A DNA stretch of 64,000 nt, from the sequence record OR757436.1; one strand, 5' to 3'. Positions 35,000 through 41,342 of the stretch are shown one piece after another. Every line of letters begins with the position of its first letter. The stretch's first letter is position 1. The position numbers and the translations under genes were made by a program. The notes below the pieces were generated by a model, which ran no database searches, was not told where the DNA came from, and saw only the letters and a program-made list of their open reading frames with translations. The DNA comes from Escherichia phage vB-EcoP-XT73.

Positions 35000-35491
35000 T
35001 TAATATTTACCTTCGGTATAAAGATCAGCTTCTGCAACCCTTCTGTTATGAAGACCCTGACTTCTCTGCTTCACTCCCTTGACCGTTATCTTATCCCAAC
35101 GAAGAAATTCAGAATATACATCCCCTTTAACATCTCCATTGATAACCTTCCTTAACTTAGATGTGCTCAAAGCCCCACTACCAACATTAAAGTTGAAAGA
35201 GGTGAGTGCATCAAACTCATGAACTAGCAAAGGAACCTTTATGTTCTTCTGAGTAGCACGAACAGAGTCTTGTGTGTCTCTATCTAGCAGAGCTAGACAA
35301 TCCTCTATAGAATACGTTAATCCTTGTCTAACCGGATAACCATTCATATCGCGCGTAGCCCCTACACATATCGTCCAGATACCTGCGGAATCTTTATAAG
35401 CCTTAGTTCTCATACCCTCATGCTTCATGATAAATTCAATTCCAGCTGGGCTTAAGTTTAATTGTACAGGTGGCAATGCGGCGTTATCCAT
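35000..35491 (-). CDS. lysozyme (T4 e-like, GH24)
   Basis: HEGMRTKAYKDSAGIWTICVGATRD places the Glu, Asp and Thr catalytic residues at GH24 spacing. Confidence 0.8.
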   Translation of the reverse strand: MDNAALPPVQLNLSPAGIEFIMKHEGMRTKAYKDSAGIWTICVGATRDMNGYPVRQGLTYSIEDCLALLDRDTQDSVRATQKNIKVPLLVHEFDALTSFNFNVGSGALSTSKLRKVINGDVKGDVYSEFLRWDKITVKGVKQRSQGLHNRRVAEADLYTEGKY

Positions 35492-35520: not shown

Positions 35521-35739
35521 TTAAGGTAATATCTTTCTCAGAGCGTTAGATTCAGCATCAGGACAAATAACAACTAAGTTATTTTGAATTATTCTCTGCT
35601 TACATTGAGAACTAAGTTTCTCTACTGGAGCAGGGATATTTACTAATGGGTGAACTGCACCTACAGGAACTGCGGTCGACACCACAACACCTGCACCTAA
35701 ACACACCAAACCATATGCAGCTTGTTTCATCATTTTCAT
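35521..35739 (-). CDS. small membrane protein (holin candidate)
   Basis: 72 aa with one long hydrophobic segment (AAYGLVCLGAGVVVSTAVPVGAV); immediately precedes the lysozyme gene in the direction of transcription. Confidence 0.35.
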   Translation of the reverse strand: MKMMKQAAYGLVCLGAGVVVSTAVPVGAVHPLVNIPAPVEKLSSQCKQRIIQNNLVVICPDAESNALRKILP

Positions 35740-35854: not shown

Positions 35855-38800
35855 TCATATCAATCCATAGATGATGTTGTGAAGAACACACCCCCCAACT
35901 GCGCCACCTATGTTGAAATTAATTTCAGCCTTACTGGACCCTGGAGGAACTGAATCAATAACAGCATAGAAACTGAACGAGTTGTTACTAGGTATGTAAT
36001 ATCCAATAGACTCAGAAACTGCATTACCTGCTGAATCTAGAAACCTAATAGATGCTAGTGTAGTGGTTGTATTCTTAGCCCAAAAACCAAACTGAAAGTA
36101 TCTTCCGGGATGACACTCACTCACTGATTGGGTGAAGTTTGCCGAGCTAGTCGTATCTGGGACACCAAAAGAGAATGATGTGTTAAACATAGGAGACGAA
36201 CTCGGAACATCATTGGGTTGAGAAACTGACACTACCCCTGATCCTGTTTGACTAAATGTCCAGTTAGATGTATTTAAGAATTGCCCGGAACCATTACTAA
36301 GACTATTAATGTAAGGGCTTACAATAGATCCAAGATCCCACCTACTTAAGACAAAACCAGCTCTAGGGTAACATCCGTTAGACACAACTCTCTTACTATC
36401 ACCGCCGATGAGTTGGCGAGTAGGGAAACCAGTGGCTAGAGTATTGTTGCCATACAGAGGTAGAGAGCAGTTTGTCAGAGAAACAAAACCATCCCCATTA
36501 CTTACTATAGGGACAGAACTAAAACCTACAGGGACCAAAATTGTCGAATCTTTTATGCTCAATCTCGAACTACCATTAACAGAAAAAGAAACAAAAGACT
36601 GATCCGGTTGATACTCAATGTTCCCATTAGAAAAAACAACTGTGGCGTTGTCTGTCATTATAATGGTTGGGTCAAAATATCCAGACTTTTTCCCAGCAGG
36701 AAGTGAACACGTATCAAAGATGAATTGTCCATTCTCAAAAGTAAAAGGTCCTCCGTTATCCACGCACCAGCAGTGATTGAACTTTATAACTTCTCCAGAG
36801 TTCGCTCTTGATTTAAAAACAACCGTGTCCGTAAAGCTTCTACTTATTGCACATTTGTCAAAAAGGATCCTATATGAATTATCAAGGAATTCAAGACCAG
36901 CTGTTGAGATAAAACCACAATTTTCTATCCGAACTTCCGACACCTCCCCACTATCAGTCCCTCCAATTACAACCTTTCTGGCACCTAGACCAACAAAGGA
37001 CACTCCTGATATCTTAGCTGTTGAAGAAATCGAATCTCTAAGCCCATAATCTGTGTTTGAATTTATAATCTTCAAGAAATATTGACCTGTTGCTCCAGCC
37101 CCTTCCTGAAGCTTACAATTATTATAGCCTATCAAGGCTCCTTTAGAAACGTCAATAGCTATCTCAGATAATACGGATCCAGAAGTTGGAACTATACAAT
37201 CGTAACCAGAGGAGTTCACTTTGTTGATATAAACAGCAATATCCCCGCTGCCAGTGTAGCCTGCATCAAACACAGAAGCTTCTCCAGAGAATAGCAACCT
37301 CTTCCATTTTACAGAAACTCCACTGAAAACCACCACCCCATCAGCTGTTTCTGAATTGTCTATTGCTACAAACACACCCCCTCCCATATTAGCCCCTTCG
37401 ACATAAGATCTTACAAAGACTTTGTCGCCTACAGAAGCTCCCTCTAAGGTCTGAAGTTGTTCAATAGAGGGGAGATCTCCAATAAGATTAAACCCTGTAG
37501 GCAGGCCTAGTTCTTGAGAGACCACATTAGATACCTGACCTAATGCCACTGCTTCGTCACTCTCAACGGCGTTTGGTATACGTATAGGTTGAGAAAAAGT
37601 TACCTTATTTGTCATCGAAGTAATATCTGAGTTAGCCCCACTCTTAGCCGCAACCAGTGCGAGCCTTGCCGTGTCCGGAGAAGAGGCTCCTGTACCACCT
37701 TTCGAAATAGGAACAATATTTTCTACAGAAACATCACCTAATCCTAAATTAGATCTAGCAATAGTAGTATTAATTGCTCCTGTACCACCTTTCGAAATAG
37801 GAACAATATTTTCTACAGAAACATCACCTAATCCTAAATTAGATCTAGCAATAGTAGTATTAATTGCTCCTGTACCACCTTTCGAAATAGGAACAATATT
37901 TTCTACAGAAACATCACCTAATCCTAAATTAGATCTAGCAATAGTAGTATTAATTGCTCCTGTACCACCTTTCGAAATAGGAACAATATTTTCTACAGAA
38001 ACATCACCTAATCCTAAATTAGATCTAGACCCCTCTGCCGTGGAAGAACCCGTACCTCCTTGGAGCAGAGAGAGAGGTGTGGTTAGGCCTGAGAGGGAGG
38101 TAATATCTGAGTTAGAGCCACTCTTAGCTGCACCGGTAATCTGCTCAACAGTATAGTCTCCGGCCTGCGGTGATACAACACCTGTCCGTGAGTTAAAACT
38201 GGAAACCACCTGTAAAGAAACTTCTCCTGTTTGAGCAACACCCCCATTAAGAGATACTGACCGAACAGAGGGGATTAGATTAGCAATGTCAACCATTGAG
38301 GTTCTATACAGCCCACCAGAGTCCTTATCTACGAAAAAACCATAATCATCCGACACAGGAATACCAACAGGAGTTTCCCCAATGTCTGAAATTGTACCAT
38401 CTGTTCCGTCACGACCCGGCTTCCCTTCTGGAATACCAAAAGAGAATACACCAGTTGTATTGTCATAGGAACCCGTTGCCAAACTACCTGGGGGTAGTAG
38501 CGTCGTCTGTACCGTCATATTAGAAATAATATCAAGCTGTTCTAGGACTTGCTGCGTTGCTTCTCTTGAAAGATCTGTAGCTGCATTTGTATTGTCAATA
38601 GCCTGTCCCGTAGACTGAATAAGACCTAGAAGAGTCTGATTCTGTGCTTCAAAGTCTTCTTTAAGTTGCTTAATGTCAGACTCTAGCAGGAACCCTTGAG
38701 CGTATAGACGTTCTACCTCAGCAAGAATCTCATCTACTGAAGAATATTTAGTCTGGGATAACAGCGCCCAATATTTAGCATCAGCTGCATACTCAGCCGC

Positions 38801-38890
38801 TGATTTATAAGCACCAATTGATCCTTCTGTAGCACCAAATTGGCCTACATTATTCACCGCTGTAGGTGCTGAATTGTTGTAACTGATCAT
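35855..38890 (-). CDS. tail fibre / tailspike protein with repeated fibre motif
   Basis: 1011 aa; four or more copies of SNLGLGDVSVENIVPISKGGTGAINTTIAR, and a Gly/Ser/Asn-rich C-terminal half. Confidence 0.7.
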   Translation of the reverse strand: MISYNNSAPTAVNNVGQFGATEGSIGAYKSAAEYAADAKYWALLSQTKYSSVDEILAEVERLYAQGFLLESDIKQLKEDFEAQNQTLLGLIQSTGQAIDNTNAATDLSREATQQVLEQLDIISNMTVQTTLLPPGSLATGSYDNTTGVFSFGIPEGKPGRDGTDGTISDIGETPVGIPVSDDYGFFVDKDSGGLYRTSMVDIANLIPSVRSVSLNGGVAQTGEVSLQVVSSFNSRTGVVSPQAGDYTVEQITGAAKSGSNSDITSLSGLTTPLSLLQGGTGSSTAEGSRSNLGLGDVSVENIVPISKGGTGAINTTIARSNLGLGDVSVENIVPISKGGTGAINTTIARSNLGLGDVSVENIVPISKGGTGAINTTIARSNLGLGDVSVENIVPISKGGTGASSPDTARLALVAAKSGANSDITSMTNKVTFSQPIRIPNAVESDEAVALGQVSNVVSQELGLPTGFNLIGDLPSIEQLQTLEGASVGDKVFVRSYVEGANMGGGVFVAIDNSETADGVVVFSGVSVKWKRLLFSGEASVFDAGYTGSGDIAVYINKVNSSGYDCIVPTSGSVLSEIAIDVSKGALIGYNNCKLQEGAGATGQYFLKIINSNTDYGLRDSISSTAKISGVSFVGLGARKVVIGGTDSGEVSEVRIENCGFISTAGLEFLDNSYRILFDKCAISRSFTDTVVFKSRANSGEVIKFNHCWCVDNGGPFTFENGQFIFDTCSLPAGKKSGYFDPTIIMTDNATVVFSNGNIEYQPDQSFVSFSVNGSSRLSIKDSTILVPVGFSSVPIVSNGDGFVSLTNCSLPLYGNNTLATGFPTRQLIGGDSKRVVSNGCYPRAGFVLSRWDLGSIVSPYINSLSNGSGQFLNTSNWTFSQTGSGVVSVSQPNDVPSSSPMFNTSFSFGVPDTTSSANFTQSVSECHPGRYFQFGFWAKNTTTTLASIRFLDSAGNAVSESIGYYIPSNNSFSFYAVIDSVPPGSSKAEINFNIGGAVGGCVLHNIIYGLI
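37686..38030. repeat. tandem array of identical 90-bp repeats (about 3.8 copies) inside the tail fibre gene
   Basis: gctcctgtaccacctttcgaaataggaacaatattttctacagaaacatcacctaatcctaaattagatctagcaatagtagtattaatt recurs at about 37686, 37776 and 37866 with no mismatches seen, plus a partial fourth copy. Confidence 0.85.
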
Positions 38891-38899
38891 ATTATCTCC

Positions 38900-39652
38900 T
38901 TATACACGAGAAGTACGAATACCATAAATATCAGGCAAGCTGCTCTGAAGCCGAGTCATGTTATTCGGAATTGCGATAGGTGAACCTGAGTACTCTTGTT
39001 TCTTATTCTGCTCTACCATTTCATCAAGGATAGCTTTTCCTAATGCTGACCATTTCTGAACTCCGTTGTCATCTTGAACAAACAAGCAAGCATGACGTAG
39101 AGTAAAGTACAGAAGAAGTTCTGGTGCGATAGTAAGAATAGCACTAGTGTCTGTGTCTTCATGGAATTCCGGTGGGTCTGCATAATAACTAAGAATTACT
39201 GAGTTTTCTGCTGGAATCAAAGGACTTCCATCATCAGGGTAATACGGAGTGTCTGCTTCGATGCTAGGATAGAAAATGAAACGACTACCGAAACGAGCAA
39301 AGTTAACAGGTTGATTGTTCCAATGAGATGGGTTAATTGTTCCATGCTGTCTACGATAGCTAATCTCTTCAGGAGATGTTACTTGGAAGATTGTACCATC
39401 TTTGGCTCTCATCATCCATTGAGCTTCTAAGTAATCAGGAGGAATGTAAGCTACTCCATCTTTAATATCTAAATACACTTCTTTTTCCAGAGGAGGGATA
39501 CGTAAATTACGATAAATCTCTTTCTCTGCAAAGTTAATAAAGTTTGGAATTTGATTAACAAATTCGTCATCGTCCCTATCTGCCCAGAGGGCCACGGCCT
39601 TCTTTAGCCACCCATAGGTATTGATGGGGTATTGAACATCTGGCATTGCCAT
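38900..39652 (-). CDS. virion protein (head-tail adaptor candidate)
   Basis: 250 aa, between capsid genes and tail fibre. Confidence 0.35.
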   Translation of the reverse strand: MAMPDVQYPINTYGWLKKAVALWADRDDDEFVNQIPNFINFAEKEIYRNLRIPPLEKEVYLDIKDGVAYIPPDYLEAQWMMRAKDGTIFQVTSPEEISYRRQHGTINPSHWNNQPVNFARFGSRFIFYPSIEADTPYYPDDGSPLIPAENSVILSYYADPPEFHEDTDTSAILTIAPELLLYFTLRHACLFVQDDNGVQKWSALGKAILDEMVEQNKKQEYSGSPIAIPNNMTRLQSSLPDIYGIRTSRV

Positions 39653-40280: not shown

Positions 40281-41342
40281 TTACGCCGCCACTGCCTTTC
40301 CCGCAGCAGTGAACAGAACACCGGAAGCATACGGGTTGCGGTGACGCAGACCAACTTCCATCTCAATCATCCATTTTTCGTAAGAACCATCTTTAGCCAG
40401 TTCAGTACGTTTCGGAGCACGCAGAACCATCTGAGTCCAGTCAGCGCTACGGAAGAAGTAAACTGCATCGGTAGGCATCCAACGGTTAACGATGATTTTG
40501 TAGCTCTGGCCCAGCGGGTCAGTGATGCTGTTAACTTCGTAAATGAACTGCTTGGTGTTTTCAAAGATACGCTTACGTGAACCCTGAGTATTTTCTTGCA
40601 GACCAGCGAAGATCTTAGCATGAGCCGGGTTAATCATGATGATATCTGCTTCAGAACCAGCGGTGTACAGTTGCAGAGTCATATCAAAGATATCTGCTTC
40701 ATCAAAGCCGATGTTAGTAGCCGGGTTAGAAGCGTTCTGTGCAACTTTAACAGTGATTGCACCAGTATCCGGGTCAGCAGGACCATTCTTGGTCTTGTCA
40801 ACAACGCCGCCAGCCAGACCACCGTGAGCACACAGGAACTGGAATGCACCAGTCTTACGAGCTGCATGGGTGTCGTTCTTGCCAATCTGATCTGGGTCAG
40901 CGGCAGAGTTAGTCAGGTATTGGTCAGCCAGAACGTCGGTACGAGCCTGACCAGACAGAAGGATTTTCTCGAGGTCACGCTTGATCTCTTTACCTTTCTT
41001 CTCCAGCTGGTACATCAGTTCGCGACCACGACCGTAGTTAGCGGTGGTGTTAGCAGTGTCAGAAACACGAACAACCTTACGCAGAATCTGAGTAACGTTA
41101 GACTTGATAACAGTCGGTTTCATTTCGCCGTCTTCAGCACGAGAGCCTTCGACGTGTGCGTTATTACCATCAACGCTTGCCAGTGCATCGGTCTGCCAGC
41201 TAAAGATAGTCTGGTTGATAGACTCTTTACCGGTCATGGATACGAACGGGGTATCCTGAGGGGACAGAACAGAAATCCAGTTAGCAAAAGAAAGTTTTTT
41301 ACCATTCTGGTCATACGATACAAATAAAGTTGGATTAGCCAT
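40281..41342 (-). CDS. major capsid protein
   Basis: 353 aa, directly downstream of the scaffold gene. Confidence 0.7.
   Translation of the reverse strand: MANPTLFVSYDQNGKKLSFANWISVLSPQDTPFVSMTGKESINQTIFSWQTDALASVDGNNAHVEGSRAEDGEMKPTVIKSNVTQILRKVVRVSDTANTTANYGRGRELMYQLEKKGKEIKRDLEKILLSGQARTDVLADQYLTNSAADPDQIGKNDTHAARKTGAFQFLCAHGGLAGGVVDKTKNGPADPDTGAITVKVAQNASNPATNIGFDEADIFDMTLQLYTAGSEADIIMINPAHAKIFAGLQENTQGSRKRIFENTKQFIYEVNSITDPLGQSYKIIVNRWMPTDAVYFFRSADWTQMVLRAPKRTELAKDGSYEKWMIEMEVGLRHRNPYASGVLFTAAGKAVAA

Follow-up and report, generated by a model that had tools for sequence, protein, structure and literature searches.

The genome of Escherichia phage vB-EcoP-XT73 (sequence record OR757436.1) raises the question of how the gene for a long tail fibre came to hold several nucleotide-identical copies of a 90-bp unit, and whether the number of these copies changes the length of the fibre. 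We analysed a stretch of 64,000 nucleotides from this genome, referred to here as the window. Tandem Repeats Finder, the repeat caller that was run over the whole 64-kb window, returned a single long-period array, which lies at 37686-38028 and has a period of 90 bp, 3.8 copies, 100% matches, 0% indels, and a score of 686. A first-pass annotation of the same DNA had described perfect repeats at 37686-38030, made up of three full copies and one partial copy of a 90-bp unit that encodes a 30-residue peptide. The perfect identity, the start position, and the number of copies agree with our results and the quoted peptide agrees with translation of the array, but the end was placed 2 nt too far. We think it probable that one 30-residue stalk module of a Kuravirus long tail fibre or tailspike has recently been amplified in tandem and in frame to give the array.

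The array is composed of 73-nt blocks that alternate with 17-nt linkers (Table 1). It is in frame (90 nt corresponds to 30 codons) and is read from the minus strand as part of the open reading frame (ORF) at 35855..38890. In the protein, the encoded repeat ...GGTG-AINTTIA-RSNLGLGDVSVENIVPISK... occurs three times and the partial unit is fused to the flanking native motif; the array thus consists of three identical 30-residue stalk modules with the unit AINTTIARSNLGLGDVSVENIVPISKGGTG. A 24-mer that contains the linker occurs 3 times, compared with 0.00 expected from 100 dinucleotide-preserving shuffles, and so the array is not due to chance.

An ortholog without the expansion is present in assembly GCA_002832705.1 (MAUZ01000001.1; locus L007), where the encoded protein, P0001, has 921 residues. 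The L007 and XT73 genes are 90.7% identical at the nucleotide level and align without gaps once the three extra units are removed. L007 has a single block, with 4 substitutions within the 71-nt core, and no linker. Because an ortholog that is about 9% diverged has no extra units, and because the copies in XT73 and in the sister phages described below are all identical, the array appears to be young. This is in line with the very recent expansion that had been suggested by the first-pass annotation. All four differences between the XT73 block and the L007 block are A or T in XT73 and G or C in L007.

We also looked for a source of the linker. When up to 3 mismatches were allowed, a search for diverged copies in the window gave nothing beyond the three copies in the array. 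Exact scans of IMG/VR, the JGI metagenomes, and the GTDB genomes did not find the linker/block junction. A sensitive blastn search with a two-unit query returned only stalk modules of about 70% identity in other fibres and no linker donor; at this level the module DNA is conserved in the fibres of other Kuravirus, of coliphages of roughly 115 kb, and of Klebsiella phage K64-1.

To place the unit within its protein family we compared 120 homologous fibre proteins, which gave 146 adjacent module pairs at 30-residue spacing and a 69-unit alignment. Each protein has 2-6 GGTG motifs, which are spaced 30, 40, or about 61-68 residues apart. Positions G11, G12, T13, G14, and R22 are invariant in the alignment and A21 and L25 are at least 90% conserved; the XT73 unit has all of these. 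It has the form of the family module, which is a unit of about 30 residues with an invariant GGTG, an Arg 8 residues later, and usually NLGLG after that. The median identity of adjacent units is 13/30, and identical neighbouring units are found only in the XT proteins and in P0068 (phage TH34). The closest relatives of the fibre, P0004-P0016, are 77-81% identical over the aligned N-terminal region (P0011 is lower, at 57%), and most of them have three modules at 30-residue spacing; P0001 has two.

These comparisons bear on the possibility that the array is old, with copies that are kept identical by gene conversion (concerted evolution) and a single-block ortholog that is the product of a secondary collapse. 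Such a history could accommodate a linker that is without a source in the unexpanded ortholog. It also fits with the closest relatives usually having three modules, since the two-module ortholog could then be a deletion product, and with the occurrence of a related AINT heptad elsewhere in the family (AINTAGA in P0043, the nearest to the linker). By contrast, the arrays of the three XT genomes, 343-523 nt long, show 0 differences although other parts of the gene do vary between these genomes, the database scans did not recover the junction, which gives the array a very narrow distribution, and the median identity in the 146 family pairs indicates that homogenisation is not the norm. On balance, we consider an old, gene-converted array unlikely. 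For a young amplification, the course that seems most likely to us, and that best reconciles the lack of a source for the linker, is a conjecture in which the ancestor had three diverged modules, the commonest state in the closest relatives, with a middle heptad like the AITPSEA, ATIPSEA, or AINTAGA seen in relatives. In the XT lineage two blocks would have been homogenised and then expanded, and in the MAUZ01 lineage the middle unit would have been lost, which brought the number down to two.

The repeat unit has a guanine-plus-cytosine (GC) content of 32%, compared with 43% in the remainder of the gene (35855-38890), and the linker is AT-rich (21% GC in its 19-nt version). In addition, an antisense ORF of 161 codons at 37671..38156 (+) crosses the array. 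The low GC content of the unit and the antisense ORF could be taken to mean that the repeat works at the level of DNA or RNA (for example as a series of protein-binding sites, an array of promoters, or an antisense gene) and that its coding is incidental. However, the period is exactly 30 codons and in frame with a 1011-residue gene whose flanks have solved homologs, the unit matches every invariant position of the fibre-family protein motif, and any stop-free repeat yields such an antisense ORF. We regard a role of this kind as exceedingly improbable, and an antisense gene at this position was rejected as a by-product of the stop-free repeat.

Other candidate explanations were also rejected. 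As far as the repeats themselves show (no search for an adjacent reverse transcriptase, another hallmark, was made), the array is not the target of a diversity-generating retroelement because the copies are 100% identical, with no adenine-position differences, and are in tandem and in frame rather than a template repeat/variable repeat pair. A collagen-like Gly-X-Y repeat was rejected because the 30-residue unit has no Gly-X-Y periodicity. The Pfam family PF03406 (Phage_fiber_2), a phage tail fibre repeat and another candidate, had no match when the whole protein was searched with hmmscan at E up to 1. This search of Pfam-A gave only a sub-threshold and irrelevant match to INPP5B_PH (19.4 bits compared with a cut-off of 29.2) and no repeat or head model; the copy of Pfam-A that was searched did not include PF27114, a precomputed match of homologs. 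The GGTG module is a widespread fibre-stalk motif that has no name and no model in Pfam.

The window, from a phage isolated on E. coli O78, is at least 99% identical to the sister phages vB-EcoP-XT18 and vB-EcoP-XT32, both of the genus Kuravirus, which have E. coli EC-YG1908-580 O78 as host and chicken-farm sewage as source. When the array is excluded, the fibre gene of XT73 differs from those of XT32 and XT18 by 4 single-nucleotide polymorphisms (SNPs) in 2693 nt. Between XT32 and XT18 there are 0 differences in the 862-nt N-terminal flank, and the single SNP of the other flank is common to both. The recorded array lengths are 343 nt in XT73, 523 nt in XT32, and 374 nt in XT18. In the XT32 record the array has 5.8 copies and the frame is intact, giving a protein of 1071 residues. 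The XT73 and XT32 records thus differ by whole units between flanks that are nearly identical. As far as these records go, the length of the array apparently changes between sisters, and always in 30-codon steps. This supports the earlier suggestion that the array provides a route to fibre-length variation.

The XT18 record is of a different kind. Its array is the XT73 array (3.8 copies) with a 31-nt insert (L002 6012-6072, sequence GCTCCTGTACCACCTTTCGAAATAGGAACAG). The insert is made up of the nucleotide just before the array and of 30 nt from the start of a unit, lies inside the array and out of frame, and has the junction sequence GGAACAGGCTCC. The fibre gene of XT18 is annotated as two coding sequences, a 'tail fiber protein' of 353 residues and a 'tail protein' of 684 residues. 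Because the insert is neither a whole unit nor a clean tandem duplication, and because it would leave a phage that had been grown on its host with its main receptor-binding gene broken, a mis-join is the likelier explanation. The insert is probably an assembly or sequencing error, and so the annotation of XT18 is likely wrong.

A broader version of this explanation is that the array exists but that all of the copy-number differences are assembly artefacts, in which case the true number may be equal in the three sisters and need not be 3.8. Perfect 90-bp repeats that extend over 343-523 bp are beyond the span of short reads, and assemblers can pass through the loop an arbitrary number of times. 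The XT assemblies are likely to be from short reads, and therefore the recorded copy numbers may be partly artefact. Other observations point in the same direction: the frame of an essential host-recognition gene is broken in the XT18 record of a host-propagated phage, the flanks of XT18 and XT32 are identical while their arrays are different, the ends of the UNVERIFIED record of phage TH34 overlap inside an array of its own, and all of the XT genomes come from one study. The first-pass annotation had marked the array as a likely site of assembly collapse, and the records of XT18 and TH34, which has a 90-bp array too, bear this out. By contrast, XT32 and XT73 both have an intact frame and differ by whole units, and heterogeneity in the copies of a fibre duplication was shown to be genuine by long reads in another phage (PMC6365445). 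Moreover, the linker is unique sequence, and for this reason the XT phages must really have at least 1.8 copies of the array. Artefactual copy-number differences are thus quite possible, if short of probable. Assemblies alone do not distinguish a real copy-number polymorphism from an assembly error, and a real polymorphism between the XT sisters, which the records suggest, still needs long reads or the polymerase chain reaction (PCR).

If the difference in copy number is real, these phages would be a natural and minimal system for studying stalk length in relation to adsorption, a question in which altered receptor-binding domains are the usual confounder. The advantages are that only a single 30-residue unit varies, that the reading frame is never lost, and that neither the anchor nor the O78-specific head changes. 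For users of these phages of avian-pathogenic E. coli there is also a warning, since the recorded lengths (1011 residues, 1071 residues, and a split gene) are not trustworthy without long reads; in XT18 the annotation splits the host-recognition gene into two broken ones, probably owing to the array.

A profile of the module was compared with structures in the PDB. The profile matched SU10 gp12 (7.7e-25), the short tail fibre gp92 (9ZD7; 8.5e-8), PhiM1 gp47 (8VBX; 2e-7), and an L-shaped tail fibre (8HQZ; 8.8e-7). The match to the R1 pyocin fibre (6CL5) was weak (0.018, and E 0.25-0.5 with a single sequence). The Shaft of the R1 and R2 pyocins is a thin trimeric rod of interdigitated 'helix-plus-turn' units and extends about 93 Å for 70 residues (PMC6116203). 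In this weak match the position of the common motif ..L.GGxG..TA.GAR..xG is immediately behind the iron-binding HxH of Shaft, from which we infer by analogy that the GGTG motif may map to the second half of the Shaft domain. However, the XT73 stalk does not have the HxH site and the pyocins do not have tandem identical repetition. An AlphaFold2 monomer built from a 65-sequence alignment had a mean predicted local distance difference test (pLDDT) score of 58.3, with values of 33-63 in the stalk. It placed short helices over ..ARSN.. in only some of the units (285-291, 315-321, 375-381, and 405-415), and a long helix at residues 70-123 is in line with the coiled coil that has been described in SU10. 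This low-confidence model is compatible with a helix-plus-turn stalk and is too uncertain to use.

The array places three extra nucleotide-identical modules after a native first module and ahead of the last one. In our preferred reading, a young amplification, the 73-nt direct repeats, which are perfect and 90 nt apart, would be a substrate for slippage during replication or for unequal homologous recombination. Perfect repeats of 73 nt are ample for exchange, judged from the recombination length thresholds of E. coli. Gain or loss in 30-codon steps would keep the frame and add or remove one stalk module. Each unit is predicted to add roughly 3-4 nm to the trimeric stalk that joins the anchor to the O-antigen-cleaving head; the analogy with the pyocin Shaft (93 Å / 70 residues × 30) gives about 4 nm per unit, which is a rough figure. 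Relative to the two-module ortholog the stalk would be about 12 nm longer in XT73 and 20 nm longer in XT32, again as rough estimates. Because receptor specificity is in the unchanged head, the expected phenotype is a change in reach, flexibility, or adsorption kinetics and not in serotype host range.

Several points weigh against this reading. The 17-nt linker is not derivable from the unexpanded ortholog by simple duplication, and its lack of a source in L007 leaves the first step in the history of the array unexplained. All of the copy numbers (3.8, 5.8, 3.8 plus 31 bp, and the single block of L007) are from database assemblies, in which mis-assembly is possible, and, given the 31-bp insert of XT18, one or more of the records probably contain an error in the region of the array. 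All three XT phages are from one laboratory and one host, and no phenotype is tied to copy number. The estimate of length per unit rests on the weak match to the pyocin Shaft (E 0.018-0.5), and the AlphaFold monomer is uninformative for the stalk (pLDDT 33-63).

Duplication of the module is not confined to the XT phages. In phage TH42 (L011 2930-3094) a SU10 gp12-type fibre gene has a 90-bp array of 1.8 copies at 98%, and in the fibre gene, of the same type, of its relative TH34 (L008 4474-4710) there is a 90-bp array of 2.6 copies at 99%, also within the GGTG module. The unit of both, GGTGATNAAGARTNLGLGNISTLNNVPVAS, is unrelated in sequence to the XT array; these near-perfect arrays in Kuravirus records are thus independent of it. 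The TH34 record is linear and UNVERIFIED, with both ends overlapping inside its own array, and only TH42 was given weight. Together, these records show that the GGTG module has been recently duplicated more than once in Kuravirus and also that assemblies break in its region.

A more far-reaching proposal is that the array is a contingency locus, where gain or loss of 30 codons occurs at high frequency, each lysate holds a ladder of stalk lengths, and selection matches the length to the thickness of the O78 O-antigen or capsule. Length could perhaps also matter for the geometry that triggers rearrangement of the Kuravirus nozzle after a compact head replaced the two-protein fibre. The independent TH42 and TH34 arrays would then mean that Kuravirus has put the GGTG module to this use time and again. 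We consider a contingency locus distinctly unlikely.

Stalk repeats that vary in length are also found in other phages. The receptor-binding proteins of dairy streptococcal and lactococcal phages have length-variable, collagen-like Gly-X-Y repeats. As in XT73, these are short in-frame stalk repeats that grow or shrink by recombination, but their unit is Gly-X-Y and that of XT73 is a 30-residue GGTG module. In the long tail fibre gene of the Enterococcus phage EfV12-phi1, variable in-frame tandem duplications of 1.8 kb have arisen repeatedly under coevolution (Wandro et al. 2019, PMC6365445), and their copy number varies between and within populations, as seen with PCR and MinION reads (PMC6365445). 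Both phages have identical, head-to-tail, in-frame duplications in a tail-fibre gene, upstream of the carbohydrate-binding part. By contrast, the unit of EfV12-phi1 is 1.8 kb and its coevolution was observed, whereas the unit of XT73 is 90 bp, or one module, and its copy numbers are from database assemblies alone. EfV12-phi1 is the closest documented phenomenon, and the XT case is an event of the same kind, seen in natural sister isolates and on the scale of one stalk module. Our claim is accordingly a modest one, since the phenomenon and the mechanism will not surprise phage biologists and this is an ordinary case of fibre-length variation. The literature search on the XT phages found only a taxonomic summary by the ICTV and no paper on the array, a search on tandem repeats of tail fibres came back empty, and the RBPseg atlas paper held nothing useful on the GGTG module.

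The protein that holds the array, WPK42100.1, was found by exact-sequence look-up to be encoded on a 75,827-bp contig. Its residues 1-229 match chain residues 1-226 of SU10 gp12 (PDB 7Z47_D; 257.6 bits, E 2.5e-75 with phmmer), and in PHROGs the gp12-like part matches phrog_10305 (E 1.7e-85). At the other end, residues 449-1011 match chain residues 139-697 of the CBA120 tailspike TSP4 (PDB 5W6H_A; 821 bits, E 1.3e-245) from end to end, and phrog_4217 matches the same head (E 3e-210). With tblastn the head is 62-68% identical to the tailspikes of many phages isolated on O78 strains. The gene had been called a tail fibre gene from its letters alone, which these matches and its position directly downstream of a SU10-type adaptor gene uphold. 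By homology, the fibre is a one-protein chimera of a Kuravirus SU10 gp12-type anchor, a GGTG..AR.NLGLG stalk, and a CBA120 TSP4-type O78 head. The head is predicted to cleave the O-antigen of E. coli O78; this is an indirect argument from the O78 host of the sisters and the presence of the same head in O78 phages.

In SU10, trimers of gp12 dock on the adaptor and with gp13 build a 700-Å fibre that makes the first contact with the cell (PMC9509320). The N-terminal 229 residues of the XT73 fibre are homologous to SU10 gp12 and in both phages the gene comes directly after that for the adaptor. SU10 gp12 also has GGTG..AR.NLGLG modules, at chain residues 464-545, but these are diverged, whereas those of the XT73 array are identical. 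Only the first 90 residues of SU10 gp12 are resolved (PMC9509320; PDB 7Z47), and the module is therefore without a structure from the Kuravirus fibre family. SU10 has a two-protein fibre, unlike XT73, where a single protein ends in a tailspike head and there is no gp13-type distal fibre gene between the fibre gene and the holin, the next ORFs being holin-sized and lysozyme. The fibre of phage ES17 likewise ends in its own receptor-binding head. CBA120 TSP4 degrades the O78 O-antigen of E. coli, and its gp10-like N-terminal domains build a branched tailspike complex (PMC8217332). The XT73 head has about 65% identity to the CBA120 gene with tblastn, but XT73 has the Kuravirus anchor and the repeat stalk in place of the gp10-like attachment domains.

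GGTG occurs in the stalk at residues 278, 308, 338, 368, and 398, an exact 30-residue spacing, and AAKSG.NSDITS motifs bracket the stalk on either side. The DNA at 37617-37652, downstream of the array, encodes AAKSGANSDITS and is 89% identical over 36 nt to that at 38097-38132, 480 nt away. After the downstream copy of this motif (residues about 421-457) homology to Kuravirus fibres stops and homology to O78 tailspikes of unrelated phages starts. Because the switch is just there, the motif region looks like a junction for module exchange.

Table 1. Positions in the window of the array and its parts, of the fibre gene, and of neighbouring genes.
Feature	Position	Strand	Remarks
90-bp × 3.8 perfect tandem array	37686..38028	-	coding strand reads block-(linker-block)x3
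Four identical 73-nt blocks	37686-37758, 37776-37848, 37866-37938, 37956-38028	-	from the sequence
Three identical 17-nt linkers	37759-37775, 37849-37865, 37939-37955	-	from the sequence; inside the codons for AINTTIA
'Native' block, first 73-nt block in coding order	37956..38028	-	the unexpanded ortholog L007 has a counterpart of this block alone
Long-tail-fibre / tailspike gene, 1011 aa	35855..38890	-	identical to WPK42100.1, annotated 'hypothetical protein', phage vB-EcoP-XT73
Virion-anchoring N-terminal part, residues 1-229	38204..38890	-	homologous to SU10 gp12
Stalk, residues about 245-440	37571..38158	-	five GGTG..AR.NLG(LG) modules
Upstream AAKSGSNSDITS motif DNA	38097..38132	-	find_repeats family D3; 36-nt direct repeat of 37617-37652
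Tailspike head, residues 449-1011	35858..37546	-	homologous to CBA120 TSP4, predicted O78 O-antigen depolymerase
Adaptor protein gene, long tail fibre docking site	38900..39652	-	PF24175 SU10_adaptor, E 3.2e-29; immediately upstream of fibre gene
Capsid gene, SU10-type major capsid protein	40281-41342		PF17236
Holin-sized ORF	35521-35739		next ORF after fibre gene
Lysozyme	35000-35491		downstream of holin-sized ORF

The neighbouring genes, with a capsid and an adaptor of the SU10 type, fit the assignment to Kuravirus. The order of adaptor and then fibre gene is the same in L007, ES17, WFI101126, and XT18, and further downstream of the lysozyme are a Gp10_C protein and a Big_2 short fibre. In the fibre's N-terminal part there is a collagen-like stretch, GKPGRDGTDG, at residues 156-165 (38396-38425), which is single and unrepeated; WFI101126 has an extra GKD triplet at this position, which makes it a second small length-variable element of the fibre. 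Two oddities were seen in the protein clusters. In the 90%-identity cluster of the 1011-residue fibre the representative is an unrelated 55-residue ENA peptide (P0122), and the 1071-residue protein of XT32 is clustered under the 684-residue fragment of XT18; because of these representatives the full-length proteins were missing from the homology search. Finally, XT18 and XT32 have an extra gene of about 500 bp, absent from XT73, between the adaptor gene and an Ig-like gene. In XT18 this extra gene bears the annotation HNH endonuclease. The breakpoint in the window is at about 39633-39645, at the 5' end of the adaptor gene, where the BLAST pieces overlap by 13 nt. This looks like a presence/absence polymorphism of a homing endonuclease that adjoins the fibre module.

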